Notes under the pieces: generated by a model
The model's database searches: none
What the model was told of the DNA's origin: nothing
Seen by the model: the letters and a program-made list of their open reading frames with translations, nothing else
Shown here: positions 2,040 through 40,046 of the stretch, in pieces
Layout: the number at the start of each line of letters is the position of its first letter
How positions within the stretch are numbered: position 1 is the stretch's first letter
Made by a program: the position numbers and the translations under genes
Assembly (NCBI GenBank): GCA_963715635.1
Contig: OY970261.1
Span: forward strand, 2,161,011 to 2,225,010
Length of the DNA: 64,000 nt
From: Candidatus Aminicenantes bacterium
Lineage (GTDB): Bacteria; Acidobacteriota; Aminicenantia; Aminicenantales; UBA4085
Direction of reading: 5' to 3'

Positions 2040-2238
2040 AAGGAAGCATGAAAAAAGGAAGCGCGCCTGGCCGGACTCGAACCAGCGACACAGGGATTAG
2101 GAATCCCCTCTAATGGGATTCTGTGTTCTCGGGAAAAATCGGGTTTTCCCCATATTTTTCGTATTTTTCCTTTAAGCACCATTAAGCCAAATTAAGCGAG
2201 TTTAAGCAAATTCTGTGACACCGGCGTGACACGGGGAG
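2040..2238. repeat. Composite repeat unit R1: tRNA-Arg 3' half (2063-2109, minus orientation, tRNA positions ~27-76) plus conserved iteron arm (hairpin GGGAAAAAtcgggTTTTCCCC, TTAAGC x4, GTGACAC x2). attR-like junction next to the host kinase gene
   Basis: Near-identical to the 3' part of the complete tRNA at 29314-29391. The same ~190-bp unit recurs at 3525, 6812 and 14190. Confidence 0.65.
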
Positions 2239-2739
2239 ATGTCCGGGCGATTTCTGTTGCTTTAAGGCTCCCTTCGTCTTTTAAGCCCACCGCTCGCTAT
2301 TTTTTGTTCAGCTTGACATCCGACCAGGCTGCGATCTAGCACCCTAACGATGGGAAGAGGGGAAACTTGCGCATGAACGCTTACTCAGCCAGCAAAGCAG
2401 AAAAACGATTTCTTATCTTTCAGAACGAACGTAACATCTTGTCAATCAATAAAACTGCAACGATCCTGTTGAGAAATTCTGAAGAGCCTCTGGCCGGCAT
2501 TGTCCTTTTCAAGGTCCTCCGTTGGATGCGATTCTCGCTCTCTGAACAGATAACGAGAATGAGGAAGAGGTACGTCCCAGAAGCTTGTTGGGCGTTGCCG
2601 GACAAAGAAGGGCGGCCCTGGTCCGGCGGAGGATTGAGCCGTCCCCTCCTTGTCTTTTCCGGCAGGCCGCCGACGCGATGCGCCGCTAAGGGCGACGCGA
2701 CGCCCGTCCCAGCTGGCCTGCCGGATCTTCAGCAATGAG

Positions 2740-3120
2740 TTACCTTCTGGGATTCGAGCCGCCCACGACCGCGTGTGTGTGGGCTTCCTTTGAGCTCAGA
2801 ACAAGATACCCGTCCCTGTCCGGAAACCAGACCTCCGACAGCAGCGACTTATCTCCGACCTTATCGAACACAAGCTCGCAATCCCTGTCCTTATCGTGCC
2901 GTCCAAGCTGGGTTAGAACCACCATGATCGCCGACCCGCTTGCGCTCCGAAGCGCGATGGAGTTGGCATCCGGCATCTCGATCGTGTACTTACCGGGCGC
3001 AAAAGCCTTGCCGCCGGCCACGAACGGGAAGCCGATTTCAATGGTACCTGTCTGAGCATGCGCAAGGGCGCCGCTCACGACAAAAAGAGCCAAGATCATG
3101 ACCACCACTCGATGCTTCAT
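2740..3120 (-). CDS. Small secreted hypothetical protein (signal peptide MKHRVVVMILALFVVSGALAHA)
   Basis: ORF with a GGAGGAG RBS 6 nt upstream of the ATG at 3120. N-terminal hydrophobic signal followed by AHA. Confidence 0.55.
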   Translation of the reverse strand: MKHRVVVMILALFVVSGALAHAQTGTIEIGFPFVAGGKAFAPGKYTIEMPDANSIALRSASGSAIMVVLTQLGRHDKDRDCELVFDKVGDKSLLSEVWFPDRDGYLVLSSKEAHTHAVVGGSNPRR

Positions 3121-3524
3121 TCTTTCTCCTCCTATAATTAAATTTTTTAACACCAAAGAAACTAGTAATCCAAGAATCGTGCCAATTTCAGGCCAGGGAT
3201 ACGTCTGGCCGGCGGATAGATTCCCCTTGAGACAGTCAGGCAGACGAGACTGCTAACGGGAATCCGTTCTTTGATCCGGAAAATAGTCCTGATTGGCAGG
3301 ACTTTTCCCATAGGATTGGATTTTCTTCTTGCGAAAAAAGTTCGGAGCCGGCCGCGCCGCGAGCAGCCTAGACTCCGAGGCTATCTTACGATGATCTCGT
3401 CGAAATTCATCATCGCTGCGGCCTTCGGGGCCGAAACGTCCGGGTGCCACTTGGGCAGGGCTCCGATGTTCTTGGATATCACGTTTGCTTACTCAGGCTT
3501 AAAACAAAAATCAGAAAAATCAGG

Positions 3525-3712
3525 GGAAAAGGGAAGCGCGCCTGGCCGGACTCGAACCAGCGACACAGGGATTAGGAATCCCCTCTGATGGGAATGTGAT
3601 CTCTCGGGAAAAATCGGGTTTTCCCCATATTTTTTTCATTTTTCTTTTAAGCACCATTAAGCCAAGATAAGCGAGTTTAAGCAAATTCTGTGACACCGGC
3701 GTTACACAGGGC
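3525..3712. repeat. Composite repeat unit R2: tRNA-Arg 3' half (3547-3593) plus iteron arm
   Basis: Sequence identity to R1 and R3 across the tRNA fragment, hairpin and TTAAGC/GTTACAC repeats. Confidence 0.65.
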
Positions 3713-3739
3713 TAGGTCTATACAGGGACCTTCTGGACT

Positions 3740-4095
3740 TCAAAAACGATCCCAGCGGAAATCGGCCCGGACGCTTTCTCCCTCAAACAATTTCCTTCCA
3801 GCCAGGCACTCATAAAGGATACATCCAAAAGCCCAGATGTCCGTTCTTTTATCGGCGGCCTTCCCCTTGGCCTGCTCTGGGCGCATGTAGGCTTCAGTCC
3901 CAAAAAGCATGCCGGGCTGCGTCATATCCGCGGTAATAGTCGGGGACTTAATAATATCGACCTCCGAAATCTGATCGAGGGAAGCTCTCGCCAATCCGAA
4001 ATCCAGAATCTTGACCTTCGCCTCTGGAGTAATTTTTATGTTCGAGGGCTTCAGGTCGCGCTGGATTATGCTTTTCTCATGGGCGCCTTTTTCCC
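3740..4095 (-). pseudogene. Ser/Thr kinase catalytic-domain fragment (N-lobe missing) directly downstream of the full kinase gene
   Basis: Translation gives HEKSIIQRDLKPSNIKI...ILDFGLAR...GTEAYMRPEQ...DIWAFGCILYE. No Gly-loop/N-lobe and no plausible start. Confidence 0.55.
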
Positions 4096-4102
4096 ATCAT
4101 CT

Positions 4103-6625
4103 TCATTCCTCGAAGTGCTCCCATTCAGACTTGAGTTTTTCCATGAGCTTCCTAAACCGGCCCTCCCCGCGGATGTTTCCCAGGTAAGGATCATAGTCAT
4201 TGAGATAAGGATAGTTAAAAAAACCACGGCTGACCGCATTTTCCAGCCAATCCAGGGCTTTCTCCCTATCACCAAGAAGAGCATAAAAATCTGCCATAAA
4301 GCTTGAATACTGCGGGTCGCGCTTGACAGTATAAAGCAATTCAGGGCTTAATCCCCGCGAAAAGTTTTTACGATCGCCTTTGGCTGCATATTTTAAAAGA
4401 AAGTAAAGCTGCCACATGAGATTCTGCTTCGGATCTTCAATGTTCTTTTCGATGATAGCCTCCGCCTCCTTAAGTCCTTTTTTATAAATAAGGAGCCAGG
4501 CATACATGAACAGACCTGGTGGGTCCAGAGGGGGAGCTTTGGAGGTGCGTTCAAAGGCAAGGTCCAGCTGACCTCCATACTGATAGAGTAATGTTTTCGC
4601 GGGCACCGTCTGGGGATTCAGCGGATCAACATCAGACATCCTCTCGGCTATTCTTTCCACAGCGGCCATCTTTCCGATGAAGGCGTATGTAATACAGAGC
4701 CACCACATTATGTCCCCATCATTGGGATTTGCCGCCAGCGCCTTCTTCAGATGATATACACCCTTCTGCTGGTTCCCGAAGAAGGCCGAATTGACCAGCC
4801 CCAAAACTAAATGAGCCTCAGAGGATTCAGGGTCCATCTCCAGGGCTTTATTGGCGAAAATTTCTGCTTTTTTTCCATTTTCTTCGCCCATGATTCCCAG
4901 GTTCGCGCACGAATAATACGCATAACCTATGCCGGCGTCGAGCATGGCATTTTCGCCGACGATCTCGAGGCCTTTTCCGAGATACTGAAGTGCCCGGTCA
5001 CATCCTTCTTTTGTCCAAAGCCCGATTTCTCTTTTGGCCTTGAGATAGAACTCGTAGGCCTGAACATTGTCGATTCGGCGCTCGGATATTTTTTTCTTCT
5101 CTTCCCCGGTCAGCTTCAACCTCAAGGCAGTGATGATGGCGGAGGTTATCTCTTCCTCAATGGCGAAGATATCCTGAAACTTTCGTTCGTATCTTTCTCC
5201 CCAAAGCTGGCTGTTATCGCTCGCCTTGACCAGGGCAGGGCTTATGGAAATTGTCTCTCTAAACCGGACCATTCTGGCGGTTAAAACGGTTTTCACTCCA
5301 AGCTCCCGGCCCACTTTTTTTGGATCGATCTTTTCTCCTTTGTAGGCGAAGGAAGAAGCCCGGGAAATGACCTTTTTAAATACGGATAACTGGGAAAGCT
5401 TGTTGATGAGAGTCTCGGTGATGCCATCGCAGAGGTATTCGGCATCAGGATCTGCGTTTACATTCTCGAAGGGAAGGACCGCGATTGAATCCAGGACCTC
5501 TTCCTCTCCCTTAAACATCAGGAGTTTTGAAATGACAACTAAAGCCAAAAAAACTCCGATTCCTCCAAAAAGCGCTACCTTTTTCCATTTGATTTTGGCC
5601 GTAATCCCGGCCAGCCCGGCTGGAATAAGCGGCTTCTTCTTGGAGAGAAGAGGTTCTGTAACCGTCGTGCGTGTCTCGATTTTTTCAAGCTCCCGACGCA
5701 GTTCTTCAGCATCCTGATATCTTTTTTCTCTGTTTTTTTCCAGGCATTTTAGAATCAGGAGGCTGAGGTTTTCGGGAAGCTGTGAAACCAGCTCTTTAGG
5801 GTCTCGAGGAGCCGCGAGCTTATGCTTCATGGCTATGCTTAGAGGAGTATTCCCTTCGAAGGGAACCTTTCCAGTTACCATTTCATACAAGATTATGCCC
5901 AGGGAATAGATATCAGAGCGCTGGTCTGCCTCTTCACCCTCGGCCTGCTCAGGAGACATGTATTCAGGTGTGCCAATGACTGTTCCTTCGCCGGTGATGC
6001 TTTTCGAATGAATAGACCGGGCAATGCCAAAATCCATAACCTTGGCATTGCCCTCCTTATCCACCATGATGTTGCTCGGCTTTAAATCGCGATGAACGAC
6101 TCCCGTCTTATGCGCCTCCGCCAGGCCCTCACATATTTGCTTGGCTATGGAAATCGATTTGCTGATGGGGAGTTGGCCAAACCTCCTTATCGAGCTCTTG
6201 AGATCCTCGCCCGGGACGTACTCCATCGTGATGAAATGAATGCCGTTCTCCTCCAAGAGATCATACATCCGACCTACATGCGGATGGCTGATCTTGCGGG
6301 CCAGCTTGATCTCGTTGTGAAACCGCTCAAGCATGCTTTTGTTTGTAGCAATCTCTGACATAATCAGCTTGAGGGCCACTTCCTCGTTCAGCTTTTTATC
6401 AACAGCACGATAGACCCGGCCCATACCGCCATGGCCCAATTCCTCAATGATTTGGTATCGGGCGGCAAAAGTGGATCCCGTGGTTAATTCTTCTCTGGGA
6501 GTCTCAAGGGTCTTGGTTTGAAAGCTTTCGACATCCCGAGAAGAAGGGAGCAGAGTTGCACATGCTTTGCAATATTTGGAGTCGGAAGGATTATCGGTCT
6601 GACATTTCGGGCATTTGACGGCCAT
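4103..6625 (-). CDS. Ser/Thr protein kinase with N-terminal zinc ribbon, TM segment and C-terminal TPR-like region (840 aa)
   Basis: CPKCQ...CKAC zinc ribbon. ELGHGGMGRVYRA, HRDLKPSNIMV, DFGIAR, GTPEYMSPEQ kinase motifs. Hydrophobic segment, then repeats. Confidence 0.9.
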   Translation of the reverse strand: MAVKCPKCQTDNPSDSKYCKACATLLPSSRDVESFQTKTLETPREELTTGSTFAARYQIIEELGHGGMGRVYRAVDKKLNEEVALKLIMSEIATNKSMLERFHNEIKLARKISHPHVGRMYDLLEENGIHFITMEYVPGEDLKSSIRRFGQLPISKSISIAKQICEGLAEAHKTGVVHRDLKPSNIMVDKEGNAKVMDFGIARSIHSKSITGEGTVIGTPEYMSPEQAEGEEADQRSDIYSLGIILYEMVTGKVPFEGNTPLSIAMKHKLAAPRDPKELVSQLPENLSLLILKCLEKNREKRYQDAEELRRELEKIETRTTVTEPLLSKKKPLIPAGLAGITAKIKWKKVALFGGIGVFLALVVISKLLMFKGEEEVLDSIAVLPFENVNADPDAEYLCDGITETLINKLSQLSVFKKVISRASSFAYKGEKIDPKKVGRELGVKTVLTARMVRFRETISISPALVKASDNSQLWGERYERKFQDIFAIEEEITSAIITALRLKLTGEEKKKISERRIDNVQAYEFYLKAKREIGLWTKEGCDRALQYLGKGLEIVGENAMLDAGIGYAYYSCANLGIMGEENGKKAEIFANKALEMDPESSEAHLVLGLVNSAFFGNQQKGVYHLKKALAANPNDGDIMWWLCITYAFIGKMAAVERIAERMSDVDPLNPQTVPAKTLLYQYGGQLDLAFERTSKAPPLDPPGLFMYAWLLIYKKGLKEAEAIIEKNIEDPKQNLMWQLYFLLKYAAKGDRKNFSRGLSPELLYTVKRDPQYSSFMADFYALLGDREKALDWLENAVSRGFFNYPYLNDYDPYLGNIRGEGRFRKLMEKLKSEWEHFEE

Positions 6626-6811
6626 TGCTGCCCCTTTCCATTTGGGATGGCTAAAGATTAGCAGGGAAAGGCAGCAGAGTCAACTAGGCCGAGTTCATGA
6701 CCTCATGCGTCCCAAATTCGAAATTAGACCTCTCCCTCCTTGTCACCGTCCAGTCATGGGATTTGCTTAAAACCGCCTAATTCTGACTAAGGGAGCTAAA
6801 ATGGAAAGTAG

Positions 6812-7010
6812 CGATTTCTCGAGGAAAGGAAAGCGCGCCTGGCCGGACTCGAACCAGCGACACAGGGATTAGGAATCCCTTCTGAGGGGGAATGTGATCT
6901 CTCGGGAAAAATCGAGTTTTCCCCACATTTTTTTCGTTTTTCTTTTAATCACCATTAGTCCGAAGTAGGCGAGTTTTAGCAAAATCTGTTACACCGGCGT
7001 TACACGGAGG
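6812..7010. repeat. Composite repeat unit R3: tRNA-Arg 3' half (6834-6879) plus iteron arm
   Basis: Same architecture and sequence as R1/R2. Confidence 0.65.
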
Positions 7011-7168
7011 GAGAGGTCTGCCCTGCCACTGGGGCCTAGGCAAGTGGATTCACGGCACGGTATCCTGCCCGGTTTCGGGCACGAATGGAAATCCCCTGAT
7101 ATGTCCCATCATTCGACCTTGACACTTTTCATGGGCAGGCGTTAGTATCTCACTCAGGATGGGAGAGC

Positions 7169-8323
7169 ATGAATAGGCATCACGTCTTCTTGCCGGCGGT
7201 TTCCTGTCTCTGTGGCCTCCTTTGCATCGCCAGTTTGGCGACAGACGATTCTGAATCAGGCTATACATATTGGAGCCGGTTCAAGCCGGGGACCTTTGTC
7301 GCCTTCCGATGCAGCACGACGAGCGGCAGTAAAACCCAGAGCATGCTAAAAACGTTCACTCTCAAGCAAGCCAGCTCCGAATCCGTCGTGCTCGAATACA
7401 AAGAATCGCCACTCGACGCGTCAGGGCAGGCTGTGCAAGCGCGGCCTCCTCTGTTCCTCGCGACCAGCCTTGAGTTCCGTGAGTCCGATGAGATTTATAA
7501 TGACCCAGACCTCTTTAAGTCCCAGCTCAACATAAGCGTGTTCAGCATTCTGAAAAGCAGCGATGCAACAGAGGTCGATGCGGGCCTTGATGATTTCTAC
7601 GTGAAAGGGATTAAGCTCCGGGCCGCCAGGACAAAACTCCGATTCGGAGCCGCGGACACATCGTCGACTGTCACGGTATGGTTGAGCGATGAAATCCCCG
7701 GGAAAGTCGTTAAGCTGTTGCAGGAAATCGAAGCCGGCGGAGGAGTTTACCGTGAAGAGGTTATAGTTGCGGATTTTTCGGCCATTAAAGCGACCCCGGA
7801 CGATATCGAGAAACTCCGGAAGTCGCGAAAGCCGGTCAGTACTGAGGTACCAGGGTCGGTCTACGTAACAGGTCGTTTTCGCTTTTTTGACGATTTTGGA
7901 AACGCAATCCACGATTTCGAACCCGTCAAGAAGTTCATGGAGACACTTGTTCCAACCAACCCGAACACGGACTGGTCCGAAGTCTATAAGAAAGCGTCGC
8001 CTTTTTTGGAGAGGATGCAGGCGTTAAAAAAGCATCTGGATGAAGATAGGCAGAAAGCCGAATTGGAGTTGGGGGCGGTCGAGATGGAAAAGCTGGGACC
8101 GTTCCTGAAGCAGGCTGCCCTTTTTGCCGACTCTATTTCAAGCGTTTTCATAGAGTCCATGGGTTACCTGTCGACACTGGCAAGCGGCCCGCCTAACTAT
8201 CAAGTAGTCCTTTCCGTAGTCGAGGACATGAGGAGCCTTGCGGCGGAATTTGCGACGAATCAGAAGAACTTGCAGCAAGAATTCAAAAAATTGGGCGAGA
8301 CCAAGGTCAGATATCTGAGATAA
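7169..8323 (+). CDS. Hypothetical secreted protein (384 aa) with N-terminal signal peptide
   Basis: Long ORF. N-terminus MNRHHVFLPAVSCLCGLLCIASLA is signal-like. No recognisable catalytic motif. Confidence 0.55.
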   Translation: MNRHHVFLPAVSCLCGLLCIASLATDDSESGYTYWSRFKPGTFVAFRCSTTSGSKTQSMLKTFTLKQASSESVVLEYKESPLDASGQAVQARPPLFLATSLEFRESDEIYNDPDLFKSQLNISVFSILKSSDATEVDAGLDDFYVKGIKLRAARTKLRFGAADTSSTVTVWLSDEIPGKVVKLLQEIEAGGGVYREEVIVADFSAIKATPDDIEKLRKSRKPVSTEVPGSVYVTGRFRFFDDFGNAIHDFEPVKKFMETLVPTNPNTDWSEVYKKASPFLERMQALKKHLDEDRQKAELELGAVEMEKLGPFLKQAALFADSISSVFIESMGYLSTLASGPPNYQVVLSVVEDMRSLAAEFATNQKNLQQEFKKLGETKVRYLR

Positions 8324-8646
8324 AAAGTCCGGCAGGACTAAATGTCTCCGGCGGCTACTCAAAGCAGGCTATTTCCAAGCTCATTAAACATCTCGAAGAG
8401 ACGGGCTGGCTGTCTTCGATTAGGCGCGGCCTGGGACGGCCGAGGAGCAGGCGGAATATTTTTAAGGATGTTTGGTTTTGATGGGGCACAAAGGTCTATC
8501 GTTTTTCGAGAGCTTTTCGGGTCGTCTGGAACGATGAGGCAGCCGACGAGCCTGGTTCAGGGGAATTTCCTTGGCTTGACTTCTATCCGCGATGGGGAAT
8601 ATCATTTTTTCGCGAGGGGAGCCGCGATTCTTAAACTCATTGGGAC

Positions 8647-9789
8647 ATGATCACAAACAACACGGAAAAGGAAATTAATATCATTATGCAGGAGGATGGG
8701 ATGAGAAATCATAAAAATGGACTCCTATTTGTATTTGCGACGATTTGCCTAATCGATTTCGGACCTATCGGATCGGCCTGGGCTCTGCGGCCCCAGGATA
8801 ACCCGTCCCGAATTTTTCCTTTGCCCGAGGTTGAACGACCCCATCAAATTTGCGTGGAAAACGGAAACGTCTATATCGCGGATGAAAACGACATACTCGT
8901 CTATGATTTCCGGGAAGGCCGTTTCTTGAAAAGGATCGGAAAAAAGGGCCAGGGGCCCGGCGAGTTTAGCTCGAGGCCCGGCCGCATGACCGTGCTTTCC
9001 GGTCGATTGTCGGTTGAAAACTCCGAGAGACTAGAGTTTTTTTCTCTTGACGGAGACTATATCAACGGAATCGTTGAACCCGGATTCCAGGGTTTTTTGC
9101 CTTTTCTTCACGTCGGAAAAAATTACGTCGGATTCCCTATGGAACGGCTGAACGACGGCTCCCTGTCCCCTCCGGCCGGCTGGATTTATGATCAGACCCT
9201 CAAGCCCCAAAAAAGATTCTATACTGATCTTCCCATGGGCCCTCCGCCTCCTCCCCCGCCCGGGTCGATTTCCTCCGGCAAAACAGATGTCCTCATGGTC
9301 CGGGATTTCGCGGACGCCATCGTGGATAGCGGAAAAATCTATGTTGCCGATTCCAGAAAAGGACTATTCATTTCCGTCTTCAATGAAAACGGGGATCTGC
9401 TTTACGAAATCCGCCATTCACTGGGGAAGGTCAAGGTTCCCAAGGGCTATCTCGATGCCTTGATCAAAGAACGCCGGGCGTCGAAATACTGGAATTCCAT
9501 TTATGCCCATCAGAATCCCATCGTGCCGGACTATTTCCCCGATTTCGTCGGCTTCAAGATCGACGCGGGCCGGATCTATGCCGTCCGGCCCGTGGAGAAG
9601 GACGGTTTATACGAAGTCGTCGTCCTGGACCTCAAGGGCCGGATCCTCGAAAGAAGCTTCCGGTTTCCGCTTAAGCCGGATTTTGAAATGCCCGCGAGGA
9701 AAAGCTTCCTCTACGACGTCGAAGAGAACAGATTCGTCTGGTTCGCCTACAACGACGCCAAGGAGATGTGCGAGCTTCATATCCACTGA
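8647..9789 (+). CDS. Secreted NHL-repeat/beta-propeller-like protein with poly-Pro linker (380 aa)
   Basis: Signal-like N-terminus. Repeated 'VYIAD..D.ILVYDF.EGRFLKRIGKKGQGPGEF' NHL-like motifs. PPPPPPPG stretch. Confidence 0.5.
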   Translation: MITNNTEKEINIIMQEDGMRNHKNGLLFVFATICLIDFGPIGSAWALRPQDNPSRIFPLPEVERPHQICVENGNVYIADENDILVYDFREGRFLKRIGKKGQGPGEFSSRPGRMTVLSGRLSVENSERLEFFSLDGDYINGIVEPGFQGFLPFLHVGKNYVGFPMERLNDGSLSPPAGWIYDQTLKPQKRFYTDLPMGPPPPPPPGSISSGKTDVLMVRDFADAIVDSGKIYVADSRKGLFISVFNENGDLLYEIRHSLGKVKVPKGYLDALIKERRASKYWNSIYAHQNPIVPDYFPDFVGFKIDAGRIYAVRPVEKDGLYEVVVLDLKGRILERSFRFPLKPDFEMPARKSFLYDVEENRFVWFAYNDAKEMCELHIH

Positions 9790-9822
9790 AAAAATCAAAC
9801 GTCGCGCGGCCTGATCAAAAAA

Positions 9823-29391: not shown

Positions 29392-29424
29392 CGCAGGATC
29401 GAAAGAGATTATAAACCGCTGATT

Positions 29425-31189: not shown

Positions 31190-31202
31190 GAAGATCTCCT
31201 TT

Positions 31203-31665: not shown

Positions 31666-31783
31666 CTATGCCTCTATCCTGGTCCCTCTCCAACTCGATC
31701 TCCATGGATAAAAGGCCGTCCCCACTGCACCGGGGGAATCGGCCCGGACCCCAAAGGCAGGCAGGCAGGGACGGCCGCGTTTT

Positions 31784-32308
31784 TCATTCCTGGTCCTTGT
31801 AATGATTTGGGGTCAAATCGTTCGCGTCTTTTTTATCTGCAAGCCGCCGAAAGGATTTTTTGATTTCGTCATTCTCTCGCTCAATCGCCTCTTTTTCTTT
31901 TTCAACAGCCTTGGCTTCTTTCTCTGTCTTCTCAGCCTGTTCCCTGGCGTTTTTTTCGATCCATTCACCCAAGGTCAATCCGACTTGCTCATGCTGGCCA
32001 TCGGATACTTTCTCGGTCGGCGTTTGAGTTTTGGCCGTGGCCAATTTAAGATCGTCCTCTTCGTCTTCGCCTTTTTTCTCTCGCGCCCAATCTGGCACTA
32101 GTCCGCTCGGGTCGGGTTTAAGGTCGGGATCGTCCGGCTTGTCTTTGAGGTCGTCCGGGCATAGCAGCCGATCTAATTCTTTTTGAGTTTTCACCGGGTC
32201 CGGCTTGGTCAACTTCGGGACATTTGTCCTGAGGTCCGCGCCATCGTCTTTCATATTTTCCGGGTCAAGCAGGTCCGAAACCTCTTTTGATATTTTCGAC
32301 GTGGTCAT
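31784..32308 (-). CDS. Highly charged/acidic low-complexity protein (174 aa), possibly scaffold-like
   Basis: ORF rich in D/E/K with predicted coiled-coil. Confidence 0.35.
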   Translation of the reverse strand: MTTSKISKEVSDLLDPENMKDDGADLRTNVPKLTKPDPVKTQKELDRLLCPDDLKDKPDDPDLKPDPSGLVPDWAREKKGEDEEDDLKLATAKTQTPTEKVSDGQHEQVGLTLGEWIEKNAREQAEKTEKEAKAVEKEKEAIERENDEIKKSFRRLADKKDANDLTPNHYKDQE

Positions 32309-33177
32309 TTCTTACCTTCCCCGCCCTTTTTCGTCATCACCGACGTTGTTGTCAAAGACGCGCCGCTCGGAAGTTCCAGGCGATAGTAAAGCTCATACTT
32401 ACCCTGACCTGTTTGATAACCGCTTGCCAGGGTCAAGTGAACGCGGGTATCGTCCTTAAATTGAACCTCAGCGATGATCTTTTCCAGCTCGGGCAAAAAT
32501 TTCTCATGCAGCCGGGGGTCAAGCCGGACGTCGCGTAAGGATTGCGCGTCGAGATTCTCCCACACCATCCCGTATATAAAATTCCCGGTACATAATTGGA
32601 CGTCGTTTGTCGCCCGCTCCCTATCAGCGTCCGCGCCGGCGTAGCCTTCATAGACGGCCCCGATTCCATGCTCTAGAGTTTCAATTTCGCTCTTGAGTTT
32701 TTGAATTTGCGTCGCCGCCGGATAGCTCATCGCGTATCTCAACTCAACCCGCGCCTGCGCTTCCTCTTTTTCAAGCTGGATAATTTCGGCCCTAAGTGAT
32801 CGAATGATCCGAGCCGCCCCCGCGAGTTTTTCCTGCGTCTCAATCCTTGCGCTCTTTTCTCGCTCCCCCGCGGCCATCATTTCAGCGAGTCCGGCTTGCC
32901 CGTCTTTCACCTGTTCGCCGATCGTCACCGCGTCCACATCGGCCGCCCGCGCCTTCGCCATGAGCCGATCTTCGAGCGCGTGATACTCGCTCACGGCCTG
33001 GGTATAGGCCGCCCGCTTTTTCGTGAGTTTATCCTGGGCGTCGGCCTGGGCCTTTTCATAGCCCTTCCGTTTCCCGTCCATTTCGCGGTCTAACCGCTCG
33101 CACTCTTTTTTGATTTCTTTTTCGCGTTCCTTGAATTGCTCAAGGATGGTCTGTGTCATGGTCATTTTTTCCTCCAA
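32305..33177 (-). CDS. Coiled-coil protein (290 aa), hypothetical
   Basis: Long heptad-like N-terminal region. 4-nt overlap with the downstream gene. Confidence 0.45.
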   Translation of the reverse strand: MEEKMTMTQTILEQFKEREKEIKKECERLDREMDGKRKGYEKAQADAQDKLTKKRAAYTQAVSEYHALEDRLMAKARAADVDAVTIGEQVKDGQAGLAEMMAAGEREKSARIETQEKLAGAARIIRSLRAEIIQLEKEEAQARVELRYAMSYPAATQIQKLKSEIETLEHGIGAVYEGYAGADADRERATNDVQLCTGNFIYGMVWENLDAQSLRDVRLDPRLHEKFLPELEKIIAEVQFKDDTRVHLTLASGYQTGQGKYELYYRLELPSGASLTTTSVMTKKGGEGKK

Positions 33178-33280
33178 ATAGAATTTTTATCGAATAGGTC
33201 AAAAAACGGCCTCGTAGTTTGACCTGTGCAGGCTTTTAATCTTTTGGTCCATACCAAGGTAGCCGTCATTTGCGTCCTCA

Positions 33281-33583
33281 TTAATCCATATCGCCGGAAT
33301 CGTCATCGATGATGATGACCTTTGGCGATCCTTCGCGTTTTCGCCGTTCCATGTAATCTGGATAGGGTTTCTTCGTCTTCGGGTCCAAGTCGGATGTTGT
33401 AAGAAAACTCAGCGGCTTGCCGGGAGGAGCGAATTTAAATCTCGGTCCAAATAACCTCTTCGTTAATCTGGCAAGCGCAGAAAGTTCACCCGGAGCGGTT
33501 TTGCCATCGTGCGCAACCGTCATCCCGACCGTTTGGACAGGTCGGCCCGTCACCTTGCTGAGTACCTGTAGAAAAATGTTCAT
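33281..33583 (-). CDS. Hypothetical protein (100 aa)
   Basis: ORF in 4-nt overlap with the terminase gene. Confidence 0.35.
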   Translation of the reverse strand: MNIFLQVLSKVTGRPVQTVGMTVAHDGKTAPGELSALARLTKRLFGPRFKFAPPGKPLSFLTTSDLDPKTKKPYPDYMERRKREGSPKVIIIDDDSGDMD

Positions 33584-35133
33584 TTCTTCCTCCCGGTTTG
33601 AATGTCATTCGTTGTAATAACGCGGCTCATTTTCCGGGACTCCGGTTTCAACCGAATGACTTCCAGGTGATCAAACTGCGAATCGCCGCCACCAAAATTG
33701 TAATACTGGCCGTGGCCGTCATAAAAGTCACGCTCGATGAATCCGATATAACCCTTGCCGCTTTCGGATCTCGCGGCCAGAACACAAGCGCCGGCGGCAG
33801 AGTTCGCCAGGTCGTCATGCCCGCCCGCGTAGTGCGTTATCAAATCCTTCCCCCCGCTCCGGGCCCGCCGCTCAAGGCCCGTGAGCTGAGCGAGAAGGCG
33901 CTTATTATCCAATAATTCAACAGTTCCATTCGAGATTAAGGGAAGAAAATTCAAATAGAGTTCGCTTGCCGTCAACTCCGAGTTCTTGACCTCAATCTCA
34001 TGTGTCCGAAAAGCTTCGGCAACCCATTCCGCCGCGTATTTGTCGGATTCCACGCTCGAGATATTGAACGATTTCAGGACGTTGGCGAATTCGGCGACAA
34101 CGCCCTGGGGCTGGAATGGCGGCCTTCGCTCCCGGAGAACGTCCAAGACGATTTTTCCCGAGCCCTCCCGGTGACAGATCCCCATTGTAAAAGCGTCTTG
34201 CCTTCCGCCGCTCGGATCGATGAATCCAAAGTAATCCGCGCCGTCGATTTTCGGCAATTCATGCCGGCTTGGGATCATGACGGCCTCGACAAGCTCCGCT
34301 GTGATAAAGGCTTCAATGTCCTCTCGCCACTCCGATTCCCACTCGCTCCGGGCCGCTTGCGGATCTTCCTTCAGCGCATTGTCGATCACCCGGCCGTCGA
34401 TCATCGGGTTCATCGTCTTCGTCGCCGCCTTCCAAATTAATGGACCTCCGGGCTTGCCGAAGTTCGCCTTGTATTGCTCCCATAAAACGCCGGTCCGGCT
34501 GTATGGCGTGCTGATTCCCAAAAGCAAACTTTCTGGAATCGTCGCCAGGGCGGGCCGAATCGCAGCCAGGATCTCCTTGTCCGGATTTGCAGAATCCTCC
34601 GAGCGGTAAAAGGCCAGCTCCTCCAAGATCGCTGTTAGGATCGTGTAGCCCCGGACGCTCCGAAAACTGGCCGTCTTCACGCCGATGCTGATCCCATTCC
34701 GGAGATCGATCGTTTCCTGCGTCTCTCTCTCAATCATCCCCTTTAGGCATTTCACCCCATGAAAGATTCCGGAGATATATGCCTTGATAATCCCGGCCTG
34801 GGCTTTATCGACGGCGATGATAAAGACCCAACCTTTTTCCCCCGGGCTCAGGTATGCCGTCCAATCCTTGAAACAGGCCAAGAAGACAGCGATCAGCGCC
34901 GACGTGTAGGACTTCCCGCTCCGCCTTCCGGCAATAACAAAACTCTCCCGGACCTTCTCCCCAGGCGTGTACTCAAAGCCTGTGCAGTCCTTGAATAAGG
35001 CCAGATCCTCAGCGCCCTCAATCGGCAATCCGAAGAGGCCGCGAAGATAGACTTCCCATGCGTGCCATGTCGAAGGATTCTTGAACAGCGGCCGAAAAAT
35101 ATCCTTTCTGTACCAAGCGTCAATGACGTTCAC
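33580..35133 (-). CDS. terL: Phage terminase large subunit-like protein (517 aa)
   Basis: Walker A AGRRSGKSYTSAL, Walker B-like ILEELAF, C-terminal nuclease-like IDPSGGRQD...GGHDDLANS. Confidence 0.7.
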   Translation of the reverse strand: MNVIDAWYRKDIFRPLFKNPSTWHAWEVYLRGLFGLPIEGAEDLALFKDCTGFEYTPGEKVRESFVIAGRRSGKSYTSALIAVFLACFKDWTAYLSPGEKGWVFIIAVDKAQAGIIKAYISGIFHGVKCLKGMIERETQETIDLRNGISIGVKTASFRSVRGYTILTAILEELAFYRSEDSANPDKEILAAIRPALATIPESLLLGISTPYSRTGVLWEQYKANFGKPGGPLIWKAATKTMNPMIDGRVIDNALKEDPQAARSEWESEWREDIEAFITAELVEAVMIPSRHELPKIDGADYFGFIDPSGGRQDAFTMGICHREGSGKIVLDVLRERRPPFQPQGVVAEFANVLKSFNISSVESDKYAAEWVAEAFRTHEIEVKNSELTASELYLNFLPLISNGTVELLDNKRLLAQLTGLERRARSGGKDLITHYAGGHDDLANSAAGACVLAARSESGKGYIGFIERDFYDGHGQYYNFGGGDSQFDHLEVIRLKPESRKMSRVITTNDIQTGRKK

Positions 35134-35366
35134 GGCTTGCCCTCCAGCGATTCATCCGCCTTCGTGAGTGCCTGGATGAGCGCGGGCAAAAGCTCAGCGT
35201 GAAGCGTGAGGCCCTTTTGCGTAGCCCTCCATTGACCGTCATCGCACTCGATCCAGGTCCTGATATCGACATAGACCTTGCCTTTAAATGTCTGAAGATG
35301 AATCCTCACGCTCCGCCCGCTGCCGTTCTCAATGCTCTCAATTAAAGTCTGCTTTGTCTCGCTCAT
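35130..35366 (-). CDS. Hypothetical small protein (78 aa)
   Basis: ORF coupled between the terminase genes. Confidence 0.35.
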   Translation of the reverse strand: MSETKQTLIESIENGSGRSVRIHLQTFKGKVYVDIRTWIECDDGQWRATQKGLTLHAELLPALIQALTKADESLEGKP

Positions 35367-35929
35367 GACTTCACCTCTTCCGGCTTCTGAATTTGTGACG
35401 ACGTTGCCCCAGGATCGATTTTGATAGGCTCCGCGTCCGCGTGGCCATCCTCCCCCTTGTTCTTATCCTGCCTGCCAAGCTGGTCAGGCTGGGCCTGTTT
35501 GTCTGCTTTCTCCGCGTCTATCTCAGCCGCTATCTCAAGCGGAGACAGGACCCGCTCCCCGACACGCTTCGAGATCCCCAGGGCTTCGAGGTCCCTTCGT
35601 ATGCTCTCACAATAGGTGATATAGGACTTCGCCATGACGGGGTTCAATTCGCCTCCCTTAAACACGCCCACTTTCTTAATGTACTCTTCTATGCAACGGA
35701 CAGCACTCAGCTTCGAAATGGCCCGGTCAACGAGTACCAGTTGAGCCGTGGTCAGATCCGCCTCACGTGGCCCCAAGTCTTCGATCAATCCATCCCGGGC
35801 GGCTTGAAGATACACCCTCAAATCTGTTCGCCGCTGTACCATGAGAGAGTAAGCGCCATGTTTGACTTTGACGCCGGGCTTCCGGCCAGGCCGCTTTTTC
35901 TCTTTCTTTTGAGGCTGATTCTCTGTCAT
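35363..35929 (-). CDS. Possible terminase small subunit (P27-like), 188 aa
   Basis: N-terminal KRPGRKPGVKVKHG resembles the P27-family 'GRKPKP' start. Located immediately upstream of terL. Confidence 0.35.
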   Translation of the reverse strand: MTENQPQKKEKKRPGRKPGVKVKHGAYSLMVQRRTDLRVYLQAARDGLIEDLGPREADLTTAQLVLVDRAISKLSAVRCIEEYIKKVGVFKGGELNPVMAKSYITYCESIRRDLEALGISKRVGERVLSPLEIAAEIDAEKADKQAQPDQLGRQDKNKGEDGHADAEPIKIDPGATSSQIQKPEEVKS

Positions 35930-36099
35930 TTATAACCTATTGAATATAATTGAATTGCGTTTTTTGGCATTTATCAAACACGTCAATAATCACGTCAATT
36001 TTCCTTCGCATATGGGGAAAAACATGGAGTACCAGTCCAGCGCTCTCCCGCCGATCCCGAAAGGATAAAGACGACGCGGGAACGGCTTTGCTTTGCCGC

Positions 36100-36262
36100 C
36101 TTTCGTCCAATAGTCTCCATTCGTCTCAGACTGTGTATATTGAGATTATTGGTATTATTGAGATTATTGAGACTATTGAAGACCTTCCCAATAGTCCCAA
36201 TAGTCTCAAAAGTCTCATTAATCTCATGAGTCTCATATAGGGATGGCGTGAGATTATTGACG
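36100..36262. repeat. Iteron cluster, candidate replication origin downstream of the rep helicase gene
   Basis: Tandem GAGATTATTG/ATTGAGACTATTG repeats followed by CAATAGTC(C/T)C and AGTCTCA repeats. AT-rich. Confidence 0.55.
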
Positions 36263-36263
36263 T

Positions 36264-37652
36264 TCACTTCGGCAACTCCCAACTTGAAGTCTTGAATTGT
36301 CCGTAGCCTGAAACTCGGGAGATAACGCCGATTTTCTTCCGGACGCGGAAAAGGCAGGGCCGACTGATTGATTCTTTTTTTGCGGCTTGGAGCAAGTTTT
36401 GCAGTTCAACCGGACCTCCTTTGAGTTGGCCTATCAGCCATTCGGCGGCGAAATCCCCTTCGGCGGCTTGGCCTGGATCTCGCCGTTGAAGGATCTCATC
36501 CGCGCCGATGTTAATGATATTTGGTTCGAATTCGACCCGCCCCCCGTCTCCTATGGTAAAGGCGATTGTTCCCGGCATTTTGGCATAGTTGCATTTCGCC
36601 GGAGCCAAGAGTCGCCGCTCCGGATTATCAGGATCGATTCCCAAGGCCAAGACGGATCGAGGGGTCGCGCCGTATGCAACCGATCCCCCGATACGATTTA
36701 GCGCGCCGGACTCATCGGTTCGTTTATTCAAATGGCAGATACCAAGGACCGCCGCTCCCGTCTTTTCAGCTATGGCCGCAAGCGGACGGAGCAGAGCGCG
36801 TCTCACGTCGGGATCCCGGAAATAATCCGTCCCTGCTTTCAGGAACGCGTTCAAGGGATCGACGACGACAAATTTGATTCGCGGATTCTGCGTGAGGGCC
36901 TGTTGTAAGGGACCGAAGATTTCCCCGACATCAAGGTCTTCGGCTTCTATAAAGAAGATTCGGGCAAGATCCGCGCCGTTTACTTCGGCTCGCGGTCTGA
37001 CCGCTTGAGCGATCGGGTCTTCGGCCGCAAGAATGATCGAATCACAATCCAGGACAGCTCCGGTTGAATCCGGGAGCGGTTCACCCCGGCTCAATCTTGC
37101 CGTGATTGCATGGGCAAGCGTTGATTTCCCTCCCCCGGCGCTCCCGGCTAAAAGCGACAGCATCCCGAGCGGGATCCGGCCTGACCAAAGCCAAGAAATG
37201 GCTTTCGATTCAACGGCGGACAAGGGTTTGAGGCTCGTAACGGGATTCTCGAATTCGTCGATCTCGCGGACGAGTTCCCGGATCCGCCCGAGCGCCTTTT
37301 CGTCTTGGGTCCCTGTCTTCAGCTCGGTCCGCTTTTCTTGATCGAGGAGCTTTATCAACTCTCCATTCTTCCTGGCCCGGAGGAGCCCGTTGACCTTGAG
37401 CTGGAACGCCGCGGAGGATAAGCGATAGCAGCCTTCTTGCTCGGCGAATAACGAGGCCAAGGATAAACCACAACGCGCCGATAGTTTCCCGTCGTCAATT
37501 TCGCCGTGTTCCTCTTCCCAGAGATCGGAAATGGCCACGGCTATTTTCCGACGCGGCCCAGTGAACAAGTCCAGGGAATAACGCGGGGTATCTTGGAGTT
37601 GGGGAGAAACCTTTGCGCTGAAGAGAATTTCCCTTTCGTCGCTGACACTCAT
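36264..37652 (-). CDS. RepA/AAA_25-type replicative ATPase-helicase (RecA-fold), 462 aa
   Basis: Walker A LLAGSAGGGKSTLA, Walker B FVVVDPLNAF. N-terminal primase-associated region. Confidence 0.65.
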   Translation of the reverse strand: MSVSDEREILFSAKVSPQLQDTPRYSLDLFTGPRRKIAVAISDLWEEEHGEIDDGKLSARCGLSLASLFAEQEGCYRLSSAAFQLKVNGLLRARKNGELIKLLDQEKRTELKTGTQDEKALGRIRELVREIDEFENPVTSLKPLSAVESKAISWLWSGRIPLGMLSLLAGSAGGGKSTLAHAITARLSRGEPLPDSTGAVLDCDSIILAAEDPIAQAVRPRAEVNGADLARIFFIEAEDLDVGEIFGPLQQALTQNPRIKFVVVDPLNAFLKAGTDYFRDPDVRRALLRPLAAIAEKTGAAVLGICHLNKRTDESGALNRIGGSVAYGATPRSVLALGIDPDNPERRLLAPAKCNYAKMPGTIAFTIGDGGRVEFEPNIINIGADEILQRRDPGQAAEGDFAAEWLIGQLKGGPVELQNLLQAAKKESISRPCLFRVRKKIGVISRVSGYGQFKTSSWELPK

Positions 37653-37852
37653 TTCGCCCGTCCTTTTCCATGCCCGGATAGCACCGTCCCCGCTTCGATC
37701 GCCGCTATATTGAGCCGGATCTGCCGTCCGATTTTCAGAACGGATCCTTCCGGCAGCCGGCCTCTGGCCGCGAGAGAATATAGGGTCTTCGGCGATTTCA
37801 TGCCGAAATATTCAGCGGCAACGGGGATCGAGTACCAACGGCGGGGTTCCAT
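37649..37852 (-). CDS. AlpA/excisionase-family HTH protein (67 aa)
   Basis: WYSIPVAAEYFGMKSPKTLYSLAARGRLP...KIGRQIRLN. Confidence 0.5.
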   Translation of the reverse strand: MEPRRWYSIPVAAEYFGMKSPKTLYSLAARGRLPEGSVLKIGRQIRLNIAAIEAGTVLSGHGKGRAK

Positions 37853-37857
37853 GGGTT

Positions 37858-38163
37858 TTATTTTATTCTCGGTTGCGCGACTTGTTTTTTCGCTTTTTCG
37901 AGGAATACATCCTGCGGCTCATTTCCGACCATTTCAGCCGGGAAAATATCTTCAACATCACATTTAAAAAATTGGGCGAGCTTTTCTTTGGTTTTCTGCG
38001 TGGTCCTCGATTCAAAACCCGCTTCTAGATACCAGAGGCAAGCGATCGAGATACCAGCACCGACGGCGACCTGGGCTTGCGTCAGACCTTGGCTTTCCCG
38101 GAGCGATCGCAATTTATTCCACCCTATGAAAGCCGGCGCTGGGTCCCATTTTATTTTTCTCAT
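37858..38163 (-). CDS. XRE-family HTH regulator (101 aa)
   Basis: LRESQGLTQAQVAVGAGISIACLWYLEAG. Confidence 0.6.
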   Translation of the reverse strand: MRKIKWDPAPAFIGWNKLRSLRESQGLTQAQVAVGAGISIACLWYLEAGFESRTTQKTKEKLAQFFKCDVEDIFPAEMVGNEPQDVFLEKAKKQVAQPRIK

Positions 38164-38259
38164 CTCATATCTCCTATATTCCTTGACATTAGATTATTTC
38201 AGTATTAATATAAGACTTATAATGACAGGCGTCAAAGGTCACAATAACAGGTTAAGGAC

Positions 38260-39117
38260 ATGAATAAAGCTACGACAATAAGGCGGGATAAAGAAAGCCG
38301 GAAAATATCTATTTCGACAGAGCCGGATATTCTTTCCGATGATCGGATTAAATTTATCATCGAAAATATGACACGTCGAAATGCGCGAATACTTAAAGAT
38401 TTTCAGAAAGGTCGGTCGCATCCGCCCTTTTGTGTCTGTTGGCTTTGCTTATGGAGGAAGTACGAAAAAGTACGGCTCTCCGGCCACCCCTATGATTACA
38501 CAACCTTTCTCGCCTATGATATCATGGAAGAGGTTTTCGGCCCTTTCCAATATGAGCCTATTAAGAAAATTCCAATCAAAATGCTCGCAAGGGAAGTTAT
38601 TCAGCGCCTGCCGATCATCCATCCCGACACAAAGAAAATACTGAATAGGTTCACTAGGGATCTGTTCCGAGACCGTTTCATTGAGTATTCAAGAAAGAAA
38701 AGATATCAATCGGATAGCCTGCAAAATCTTATAGAACAACTTATGTATCAGATTCACCGCGAGGGGGGAAGATATGTACCAGCGCAGGAATTTGGCCCGA
38801 AGGCCATCCGCGGATTGAGGCCATCTGGGCCGAAGGCCATCCACATTTTAAGGCCATCAACGCGCGCACTTCTGCCCTCGAAGATTGCCCAATATATTTA
38901 CTCGCAGCCCGACCACAAGGCCACACAACGCGAGCTACAGCGCCTTACGAATAAGCGTAAGGCCGATCTCGAAGAGACTCATGAATGGCTTAAATGGCGA
39001 TACGGGATAATAACCCCGCCACATAAGAAATGGGAATCGACTATCTATATAGGGACAGAGCCAAAATTCCCTAGAAAACCGCCAGGGAGGCGGCTCGGAC
39101 GGCCCCGTCCTTTATAG
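38260..39117 (+). CDS. Hypothetical protein (285 aa) with internal GPKAIRGLRPS/GPKAIHILRPS duplication
   Basis: ORF. A ~30-bp DNA direct repeat at 38796-38860 encodes the duplicated peptide. Confidence 0.45.
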   Translation: MNKATTIRRDKESRKISISTEPDILSDDRIKFIIENMTRRNARILKDFQKGRSHPPFCVCWLCLWRKYEKVRLSGHPYDYTTFLAYDIMEEVFGPFQYEPIKKIPIKMLAREVIQRLPIIHPDTKKILNRFTRDLFRDRFIEYSRKKRYQSDSLQNLIEQLMYQIHREGGRYVPAQEFGPKAIRGLRPSGPKAIHILRPSTRALLPSKIAQYIYSQPDHKATQRELQRLTNKRKADLEETHEWLKWRYGIITPPHKKWESTIYIGTEPKFPRKPPGRRLGRPRPL

Positions 39118-39242
39118 ACGTGTCCAAAAATTGTACAAAATAATTGACGGGATTATTGGTGTCTTGAGCGATAAAAATCTCCTTGACAGAGTGGCCGAGC
39201 AATATTATCATTATGGAGGGTGAAAATATGGAAGCAGTCGAG

Positions 39243-39824
39243 TTAGATGCCTTGGCGTTGGAATACCAGGGAAATTACGGGAATGCCATCGGGGATTTGA
39301 ACCTCTCGGATTTCGTGAATAATCCCTTTCTCAACTGCGAAATTGGCATCCTTTGTTTGGGCTTGAAGAAAAAGGCCTGCGACTTCATCTTCGGTAAGTT
39401 TGGTATGCCGGGAAATGACCGCTCCGATTCTCTTCTGGTTGCTAAGAACCCCGTCTAATCTTTCCCGTAAATCCTTCTCCTCAAATCTCTGCCCTTGATT
39501 CGCATTGAATCCGACACCGTGGAACATGAATGTTGCAGTAGATGTAGCATAACGTTTCTTTCCAGCTAAGAATATAACATTTCCGATGGAATCCACGTTG
39601 CTGACATTATGCATTATCAATTCAAAAGGCATTCCCTTTAAGACGTTGTATAGATTCATCCCCTCCATTACCATGCCGCCCGGAGTGGAAAGTAACAAGG
39701 CAACTTTTTGAACTTTCAAGTTGGCGCAATTGCTCATAACGGCAATAAGACTCTCGATCGTTTTTAAGCTGATTTCCGCCGAAAAAGAAATATAAACAAG
39801 GGGTGCACCTACAGGTATTTCCAT
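39243..39824 (-). CDS. ClpP/S14-S49 family serine protease-like protein (193 aa), possibly a prohead protease
   Basis: LLLSTPGGMVMEGMNLYNVL parallels the ClpP 'INSPGG' oxyanion-hole region. Confidence 0.5.
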   Translation of the reverse strand: MEIPVGAPLVYISFSAEISLKTIESLIAVMSNCANLKVQKVALLLSTPGGMVMEGMNLYNVLKGMPFELIMHNVSNVDSIGNVIFLAGKKRYATSTATFMFHGVGFNANQGQRFEEKDLRERLDGVLSNQKRIGAVISRHTKLTEDEVAGLFLQAQTKDANFAVEKGIIHEIREVQIPDGIPVISLVFQRQGI

Positions 39825-40003
39825 TGCTAAAAACTCCTTACCGGAGCTATTTATAATTATGGCATTATAGTTTAGGATGTCAATAGAATATTTTTGAAAA
39901 ATTGACGGGATTTTTGACGTCCTTGAACGGGAATACCTAAGAATATTAGAGAATGCCTAAGACACTTTCTCGGGGAAAAACGATTTTCCAGGGAGGCTTT
40001 TAA

Positions 40004-40046
40004 GGATTAGGAATCCCTTGCTCTATCCATACTGAGCTACAGGCGC
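40004..40046 (-). pseudogene. Displaced 5' half of tRNA-Arg(CCT), positions 1-43 (acceptor through anticodon loop); right-hand attachment-site repeat
   Basis: rc = GCGCCTGTAGCTCAGTATGGATAGAGCAAGGGATTCCTAATCC, 42/43 identical to 29349-29391. Followed by non-tRNA sequence. Confidence 0.7.

Follow-up and report, generated by a model that had tools for sequence, protein, structure and literature searches.

How one tRNA gene came to lie between two different integrases, with its native halves apparently 38 kb apart, is the question raised by the tRNA-Arg(CCT) locus of a Candidatus Aminicenantes bacterium (assembly GCA_963715635.1, contig OY970261.1, positions 2,161,011 to 2,225,010). We analysed this whole stretch of 64,000 nt, referred to below as the window. 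The explanation that we consider highly probable is that tRNA-Arg(CCT) was a hotspot for two related lineages of tyrosine integrases, both crossing over in the anticodon stem-loop, whose elements carried opposite halves of the tRNA. On one side was a phage-related element that carried the 5' half (element R), and on the other side was an array of elements of the 3' type, of which the tRNA-proximal one (island Q) still had its integrase. To our knowledge, the mobile elements of uncultured Aminicenantes are essentially undescribed, and the locus offers a first glimpse of their mobile DNA.

One tRNA gene and its displaced halves

Genes for tRNA were identified with ARAGORN and Rfam, and partial copies with blastn-short using the tRNA and its flanks as the query. 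The window contained a single tRNA gene, together with a 5' copy and four 3' copies.

29315-29392, minus strand: intact tRNA-Arg(CCT) (ARAGORN; Rfam tRNA model, 63.4 bits; junction alignments)
40004-40046, minus strand: 5' copy, tRNA positions 1-43, 43 nt with one mismatch, T17A (blastn-short)
2061-2107, minus strand: outermost 3' copy, tRNA positions 30-76, 47 nt, 100% identical, followed by a T-rich run (blastn-short)
3536-3582, minus strand: 3' copy, tRNA positions 30-76, 47 nt, 100% identical (blastn-short)
6833-6881, minus strand: 3' copy, tRNA positions 28-76, 49 nt, 100% identical (blastn-short)
14210-14253, minus strand: 3' copy of a diverged tRNA-Arg(CCT), 44 nt, 86% identical (blastn-short)

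An initial annotation made from the letters alone had already described this set, and blastn-short recovered the 43-nt copy of tRNA positions 1-43 exactly where it had been placed. The gene itself was real as well, with coordinates (29314-29391) that were 1 nt off. All four 3' copies were found within 1-2 nt of their reported positions, apart from the one given as 3547-3593, which was 11 nt off and actually lay at 3536-3582.

Every copy was on the strand of the tRNA, the 5' copy upstream and the 3' copies downstream of the intact gene, and their E-values against the window were 1e-17 to 1e-23. The 5' block of identity stopped at tRNA position 43 and the 3' blocks began at positions 28-31, within an anticodon stem-loop of 5-bp arms around the 7-nt loop TTCCTAA. 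The 5' and 3' blocks overlapped solely in the 13-mer GGATTCCTAATCC. This core occurred six times in the window, always on the minus strand, against an expected 0.19, and none of 100 shuffled sequences reached six occurrences. The copy at 14210-14253 had the T stem CTGG/CCGG changed to GGGG/CCCC and a T at the discriminator position, unlike the resident gene. Because these stem changes were compensatory and the discriminator differed, the copy was assigned to a different tRNA lineage. The only block that it had in common with the intact tRNA was the 15-nt GGATTCCTAATCCCT, and therefore the crossover of island Q was confined to the anticodon stem-loop. The crossover region had been proposed to be this stem-loop from the start, which fits shared blocks limited to GGATTCCTAATCCCT and GGATTCCTAATCC.

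The copies might instead be chance matches or tRNA pseudogenes that have nothing to do with integration. Nothing beyond the absence of direct excision data spoke in favour of this. The copy E-values and the core count refuted it, as did an empty site in a related contig (L049, described below); moreover, orientation and side were right for every copy and integrases flanked the gene. We gave this idea practically no chance of being correct.

The intact gene thus appears to be chimeric, with positions 1 to ~43 coming from element R and positions ~30 to the CCA end from island Q. The segment at 40004-40046, which has A17, reads as the native 5' half displaced to the far junction of element R, and 2061-2107 is presumed to be the native 3' half. 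Read in this way, the working tRNA gene is now almost wholly mobile-element DNA and its native halves lie 38 kb apart.

Several further observations concerned the tRNA itself. The CCA end was not encoded at 2061-2107, where GCGCGC was followed by TTCC, and it was likewise absent in the related loci L049 and L054; the CCA of the resident gene (29315-29317) derives from island Q. Among species-representative genomes, exact matches to the 43-nt 5' half were found only in Aminicenantes-type metagenome-assembled genomes. A codon-usage rationale for the choice of tRNA-Arg(CCT) was dropped, as AGG had a frequency of ~11 per 1000 codons in host genes and all elements alike.

Two integrases on opposite sides of the gene

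The features next to the tRNA were the following.

27865-29310, plus strand: IntQ, 481 amino acids (aa), tyrosine integrase of the 3'-type island (Pfam Phage_integrase, E=3e-30, and N-terminal HTH_17)
29425-30582, minus strand: IntR, 385 aa, tyrosine integrase of the 5'-type element (Pfam Phage_integrase, E=5e-31)
14254-29314: island Q, ~15 kb, composite, bounded by the tRNA and the 14210 copy
29393-40003: element R, 10,611 bp, a small phage-related integrative element bounded by the 43-nt repeat and absent from L049 and L050

The presence of two different tyrosine integrases around the tRNA, as first described, was borne out by the Pfam Phage_integrase matches on both sides. IntQ and the tRNA were oriented convergently, the IntQ stop codon being 4 nt from the tRNA 3' end, while IntR read toward the tRNA and its stop codon was 33 nt from the tRNA 5' end. 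The two proteins were 30% identical over 350 aa (E=4e-41), and the pairwise alignment contained the catalytic R, HxxR and Y motifs in both (GMRLSE/GLRRSE, HDLRH/HDLRR and MRYVH/ERYTH). IntR and IntQ would each catalyse recombination at the core. In a neighbour-joining tree without support values, the IntR-type integrases formed one clade apart from the IntQ family. Homologues of IntQ abutted the 3' ends of tRNA-Arg genes in the same convergent orientation, namely in L046 and L048 (79% identity) and in L055 (44%; tRNA-Arg(TCG), 5-nt gap).

The public annotation of IntQ (P0002, 396 aa) began 85 codons later than the open reading frame, so that it was without HTH_17. This domain was kept by all of the 470-490-aa IntQ homologues, and the start of P0002 was probably mis-called.

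An empty site for element R in related genomes

Syntenic contigs were reached through homologues of the upstream host gene, which encoded a channel of the MscS type with a cyclic nucleotide (cNMP)-binding part. The closest contig, L049, was 94-96% identical to window positions 40153-51656. In L049 the native promoter TTGCAA-17-TATATT ran into an intact tRNA-Arg(CCT) without the 10.6-kb insert. The host DNA adjoining the 40004-40046 copy, which the initial annotation had also placed there, was 96.9% identical to L049, a contig in which the tRNA is intact. Another sample provided L050, with flanks 94-96% identical, the native promoter and the same tRNA gene start, and with element R absent. In L051, L052 and L054, which had ~78% core identity, an intact tRNA gene was found behind MscS.

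The more distant L010 (77% core identity) had the same host flank, the 43-nt copy and a related element arm, and its junction was 88% identical. Therefore, this site was occupied by an R-type element in another lineage too, one that is more distantly related. On the left side of the locus, L049 had a single 1.9-kb remnant of the 3' type without element R, and L051 had different left-hand modules. Comparison with related genomes, which had been suggested along with the original description, thus gave an empty site for element R in L049, and partial evidence of one where the left array is concerned.

The host MscS/cNMP-binding channel gene of the window (40153-41782, minus strand) was frameshifted at 41426-41442. 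An alignment with the 542-aa homologue P0085 needed two frames, one for residues 1-119 and the other for residues 114-542. The split could be due either to a pseudogene or to an assembly error.

The R family at other loci

A metagenome scan with IntR gave 33 loci, including 18 loci of close homologues at 55-89% identity. In all 18, a complete tRNA-Arg in the same orientation began ~36 nt past the stop codon of the integrase; its anticodon was mostly CCT (ACG in L023 and L024, TCG in L026). Sufficient upstream DNA was available at six loci (L015, L020, L021, L024, L025 and L027), and a 100% repeat of tRNA positions 1-43 (± few nt) was found 7-10.4 kb upstream in all six. At these loci, as in the window, the rebuilt gene was at the integrase end and the 5' portion of the tRNA was carried by the element. 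The repeat was directly adjoined by a conserved arm, CCTGGAAAATCnTTTTTCCCCGAGAAA ... ACGTCAnnAAnnCCGTCAAT. Members of the family were compact (7.1-10.6 kb), and their genes were mostly co-oriented with the tRNA. The original proposal of a ~10.6-kb element whose attachment site (attP) carried the tRNA 5' half was therefore strongly supported by the empty site in L049, the layout at 18 of 18 loci and the repeat at 6 of 6.

One could also imagine that element R carried a complete tRNA as cargo or attP and that the 40004 piece was a leftover of a later deletion. It is general knowledge that some elements carry whole tRNA genes, and no attP sequence was recovered here. Yet the repeat endpoint was constant (position 41-44, in the anticodon stem) in the window, L010 and six other loci, including Arg(ACG), and the conserved arm directly adjoined it. 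One endpoint across differing tRNA sequences rules out independent deletions of a full-length copy, and we found this scenario very improbable.

R-type elements were found solo, without 3'-type neighbours, in L020-L022 and L028. Occupation of the tRNA from both sides was seen at other loci as well: L027, L046, L048 and, in remnant form, L018. These loci bear on the idea that 2061-40046 is one composite unit, in which 38 kb would be lost and the native gene regained through recombination between the outermost cores, the inner boundaries being only historical. The six identical cores in direct orientation agree with it, and so does the fact that the outermost pieces are the native 5' half and what is presumed to be its 3' counterpart. 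Against it are the R-type elements that stand alone and the 3'-type remnant without element R in L049; therefore, the two sides are independent. We judged a single composite unit to be improbable, and we return to two lineages of elements that used the same gene separately.

More distant relatives of IntR (37-43% identity), in L029, L031 (tRNA-Ser TGA) and L032 (tRNA-Leu CAA), were ~80 nt upstream of co-oriented complete tRNA genes, and the 5'-type layout may extend beyond tRNA-Arg. In the IMG/VR database there was one integrated relative of IntR (L044) and no relative of IntQ.

A predicted promoter carried by the element

The junctions of element R contained the following features.

29408-29436, minus strand: predicted element-borne tRNA promoter, TTGATA-17-TATAAT (promoter scan, 11/12)
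40069-40097, minus strand: native host tRNA promoter, TTGCAA-17-TATATT, now orphaned and pointing into element R (promoter scan)
39900-40003, minus strand: integrase-distal arm of element R, conserved in L010, L015, L020, L021 and L027

An element of the 5' type needs its own promoter because the host promoter stays behind, in this case at 40097-40069. The same host sequence was also found upstream of the intact tRNA in L049, L050, L051 and L010. The candidate promoter of the element ranked among the three best in element R; its -35 box was inside the last two sense codons of the IntR gene and its -10 box was just past the stop codon. All close family loci kept both hexamers ahead of the tRNA (TTGCTA/TTGATT/TTGACA and TACAAT/TAGAAT/TAATAT), and they persisted even where the surrounding family sequence had diverged. 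This predicted sigma-70-like promoter would drive the rebuilt tRNA gene. The family data suggest a design rule for elements of the 5' type, in which the promoter is fitted into the interval that separates the tRNA 5' end from the integrase stop codon.

In the attP of element R, the integrase 3' end would be followed by the element promoter, by tRNA positions 1-43 and by an arm that contains no tRNA sequence. On integration, the host promoter and the native 5' half would be exiled by 10.6 kb, to what is now 40004-40097, and the gene would be rebuilt beside IntR and transcribed from the element promoter. The distal arm contained CTTAGG and CGTCAA, each of them twice, as well as a palindromic motif, CTGGAAAATCGTTTTTCCCCGAGAAAG; all of these are presumed to be accessory or arm-type binding sites.

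Gene content of element R

Five genes of element R could be described in addition to the integrase gene.

33580-35133, minus strand: TerL-like protein, 517 aa (PHROG terminase large subunit, E=3.5e-23; conserved in 8 loci)
35363-35929, minus strand: o188, conserved and always directly upstream of the TerL-like gene (tblastn and clustering)
36264-37652, minus strand: primase/helicase-like replication protein (Pfam AAA_25, E=1e-24; PHROG DNA polymerase/primase and primase/helicase)
37858-38163, minus strand: helix-turn-helix (HTH) repressor-like regulator (PHROG transcriptional regulator or repressor)
39243-39824, minus strand: ClpP-like head-maturation protease (Pfam CLP_protease, E=1e-15; PHROG head maturation protease)

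The gene core of o188, the TerL-like protein and the integrase was conserved in 8 related loci (tblastn and clustering). The TerL-like protein had no Pfam match and no PDB sequence match. The products of o290, o174 and o188 had no match in Pfam, PHROGs or PDB sequence searches, and the same searches gave no match at all for 5-6 open reading frames of the element. Divergent promoter-like sites were found by the promoter scan at 38183-38235, beside the HTH regulator gene. The ClpP-like gene had its own promoter-like site (39856-39883), and no other gene lay between it and the orphaned host promoter. The integrase, the HTH regulator, the primase/helicase, the TerL-like protein and the protease could correspond to the make-up of phage-inducible chromosomal islands (PICIs), which are compact and have an integrase, a regulator, a replication module and packaging-hijack genes. 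From this gene content, element R is probably phage-related and helper-dependent, that is, satellite-like.

The left-hand array

To the left of island Q, three further modules were delimited by the 3' copies.

6882-14209: module E3, without integrase (NucC-like nuclease, HEPN-like, ankyrin-repeat and NHL beta-propeller genes)
3583-6832: module E2, without integrase (840-aa Ser/Thr kinase-TPR gene and a kinase pseudogene fragment)
2108-3535: module E1, a 1.4-kb remnant (arm 2108-2243 is 91% identical to arm 3583-3718)
14254-14389, minus strand, with copies at 2108-2243, 3583-3718 and 6882-7016: integrase-distal arm of the 3'-type elements (repeat families D3, D4, D6 and D9)

On the tRNA-sense strand, a homologous arm of ~190 nt preceded each of the four 3' copies. 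In the distal arm, GCTTAA occurred four times and GTGTCAC twice, in addition to the palindrome GGGGAAAACCCGATTTTTCCC. The tRNA-proximal arms of E2 and E3 were homologous as well (repeat family D10). The shared arms indicate that the modules are the ends of related elements. The attP of such an element would consist of the arm, tRNA positions ~30 to 76 with the CCA, and the integrase 3' end, and integration would exile the native 3' half downstream. Repeated use of the site in this way would build the tandem array of four modules. Only the tRNA-proximal module keeps an integrase (IntQ), and the other three would be remnants with ~190-nt arms that could be mobilised in trans. Remnants without an integrase that can be mobilised in cis are known as a concept. 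Since elements of both types regenerate the core at each junction, each would integrate regardless of the other, and those with an integrase may still be mobile today.

When the arm of element R was compared with those of E2 and E3, only TTTTCCCCGAGAAA was common to them (z = 6.6 and 3.1), and the reverse complement gave no signal. We had also considered that the attachment site was flipped by 180 degrees; the palindromic motif was ambiguous in orientation, and no conclusion was drawn.

As cargo, island Q had, among others, a gene at 21642-23258 whose product joins a methyltransferase to an Mrr-like nuclease, a TPR gene and low-GC genes without an assigned function (Pfam and PADLOC). The GC content was 0.33-0.44 over 16-20 kb, and low GC extended over roughly 12-19 kb of the window. 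The TPR gene, of 606 aa, had eight 102-nt tandem units at 19881-20894 and was bracketed by direct repeats of ~85 nt (19731-19816 and 21543-21627; 89-91% identical) that were 1.8 kb apart. A fifth copy of the distal arm was found inside island Q at 15576-15676, joined to the reverse-complemented 3' end of a different tRNA (...GGTCGCGAGTTCGAGCCTCGTCGGCCCCGCCA). This other-tRNA piece (15533-15676 region) was an insertion that directly followed ATGGGGAAAAC, one half of the palindrome of the arm, and it was also present in L049 (13502-13556, 91% identity). In Rfam, the segment 15400-15700 gave just a weak, sub-threshold match. The region 15533-15676 may be the remains of a relative that targeted another tRNA in the opposite orientation. 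The fifth arm copy and the other-tRNA piece imply that island Q is composite.

In E3, the NHL/DUF5128 segment (8562-9824) was 92.7% identical to L051 (17162-18418), while the flanking core was only ~78% identical, which points to a recent horizontal transfer of the NHL module, the one indirect sign of mobility among the remnants. In E2, a Ser/Thr kinase-domain fragment (3767-4084) was found downstream of the 840-aa kinase gene, with 41-43% identity to both kinases of the window over ~105 aa; it is probably a pseudogene remnant. Paralogues of the kinase-TPR genes were extremely numerous in these genomes and were found beside the tRNA in L051, L054 and L061.

Weighing the explanation

Some of our observations spoke against the proposed course of events. 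On the side of element R, all R-family loci were integrated forms, with no excised circle or attP junction among them, and an IMG/VR scan for the junction motif of core and arm found no free or excised form. The native 5' half of L049 had T17, as in the element copy; therefore, the T17A mismatch is not a clean marker of host versus element. No capsid, portal or tail gene was recognised in element R by Pfam, PHROG and PDB sequence searches, and for this reason the term satellite was a guess. On the side of the array, no integrase remnants were found in E1-E3, and thus a lost integrase is indistinguishable from one that was never there. The order of modules was different in L051, and one kinase module was inverted there, so that recombination among the attachment-site repeats must also have shaped the array. 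The left-flank kinase gene (3-1913) was without a close orthologue, none exceeding 76% identity besides itself. This flank was unlike that of L049, in which a GFO_IDH_MocA gene comes first, and the contexts of its best relatives showed no tRNA.

The last points also affected two parts of the original description. The kinase gene adjoining the 2061 copy had been taken for a host gene, a status that the lack of a close orthologue and of a match in L049 did not confirm; the array may continue leftward beyond the window. The tandem array of the 3' type was supported in outline by the co-oriented copies and their arms, and with the fifth arm copy it turned out to be more composite than described. 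As for successive integrations with loss of the older integrases, it held that only IntQ was kept, and the loss would have to be postulated for E1-E3.

These data make room for an alternative in which the left array arose largely by recombination or duplication among att-like repeats together with shuffling of host genes, rather than by four integrations with integrase loss. In addition to the missing integrase remnants and the reordered and inverted modules of L051, it would account for the 91% identity of the E1 and E2 arms over 192 nt, which resembles the outcome of a recent duplication, and for the abundant kinase paralogues adjoining the tRNA in other loci. Conversely, each module had a distinct tRNA-proximal arm, the 14210 copy came from another tRNA lineage, the NHL module had the signature of transfer, and the GC content was atypical. 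We considered this alternative unlikely on balance, with some chance of being correct. Repeated integration through opposite halves of the same tRNA remained our explanation.

A bolder view goes further than this. The IntR clade could represent a bacterial lineage that, as a whole, gave up the 3' half of the anticodon-loop target and took up the 5' half instead, with a promoter built into the integrase end, with two sister lineages co-occupying the gene while leaving each other's sites intact and with the element controlling the host tRNA-Arg(CCU). We offer this view tentatively and regard it as doubtful. If it were true, the host tRNA-Arg(CCU) would be fully encoded and transcribed by mobile DNA, and transcription from the orphaned host promoter would enter element genes.

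Some practical consequences follow from the locus as well. The 30%-identical integrases, which share the same 13-15-nt core and use opposite halves, form a matched natural pair for studying the orientation of integration and the evolution of attP. Moreover, the locus is a warning for island-finding programs, as a working tRNA may lack its native promoter and both native halves, and the chromosomal attachment site (attB) must be put together from pieces 38 kb apart. Tools that rely on 3' fragments only would miss element R.

Comparison with known systems

Integration through the 5' half of a tRNA gene was reportedly described by Zhao and Williams in 2002. In the Islander collection, 159 of 3919 islands (~4%) had a 5' tDNA fragment and 2083 had an anticodon-centred attP (Hudson et al. 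2015, PMC4383910). Recombination at the 5'-distal part of a tRNA was called 'considerably less frequent' than at the 3' part, with several cited cases that included archaeal elements (PMC6563490). Thus, the initial annotation was right that a 5'-half attP is unusual, and it overstated how unusual, given the share of such islands in Islander. As in the known elements of this type, element R carried the 5' part of the tRNA, left a displaced 5' fragment and had the rebuilt gene within its end, and in both cases the promoter must come from the element. The Islander islands with 5' fragments also resembled element R in having a tRNA gene and a co-oriented upstream 5' fragment with the integrase gene between them, and they belonged to the anticodon-centred crossover class. 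In PYG1 of Pyrococcus yayanosii, a partial copy of tRNA-Gln was followed by a complete one, with 44-bp repeats (PMC9897764). Archaeal elements of the PYG1 type had the same succession of partial 5' copy, element and complete gene as element R, with repeats of ~44 bp; in contrast to element R, the 5'-type elements of Archaea had archaeal hosts and were of unrelated element types.

The left side of the locus had its own counterparts. Islander contained 125 tandem arrays of at least two islands and 4 of at least three (PMC4383910), and tandem arrays with recombination within them were discussed elsewhere (PMC7192596). Similar to the known arrays, the left side consisted of head-to-tail modules built from a regenerated core, each ending in a displaced tRNA fragment. 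Similar to known arrays with remnants, its inner modules were without an integrase and kept their arms. In comparison to the Islander arrays, it had four modules, which is rare there, as well as an element of the 5' type across the same gene.

With regard to gene content, element R resembled PICIs and capsid-forming PICIs (general knowledge; context in PMC10111431) in size, in the integrase at its end, and in the repressor-like regulator with divergent promoters. It also shared a primase/helicase and packaging-related genes with satellites of this type. It differed from PICIs in having a TerL-like gene instead of the usual small terminase, in that no capsid or portal gene was recognised, and in that no helper was known.

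Since integration through the 5' half is rare and already known, the principle is not new. Unlike the known 5'-type cases, the locus described here belonged to a clade of more than 18 Aminicenantes integrases that targeted tRNA-Arg isoacceptors, the conserved predicted promoter overlapped the integrase stop codon, and the elements were of 7-10.6 kb with a terminase-like gene. What is new is a coherent clade of bacterial integrases whose elements are all of the 5' type; the clade has a predicted built-in promoter and has repeatedly co-occupied its target gene with a related lineage of the 3' type in an uncultured phylum.

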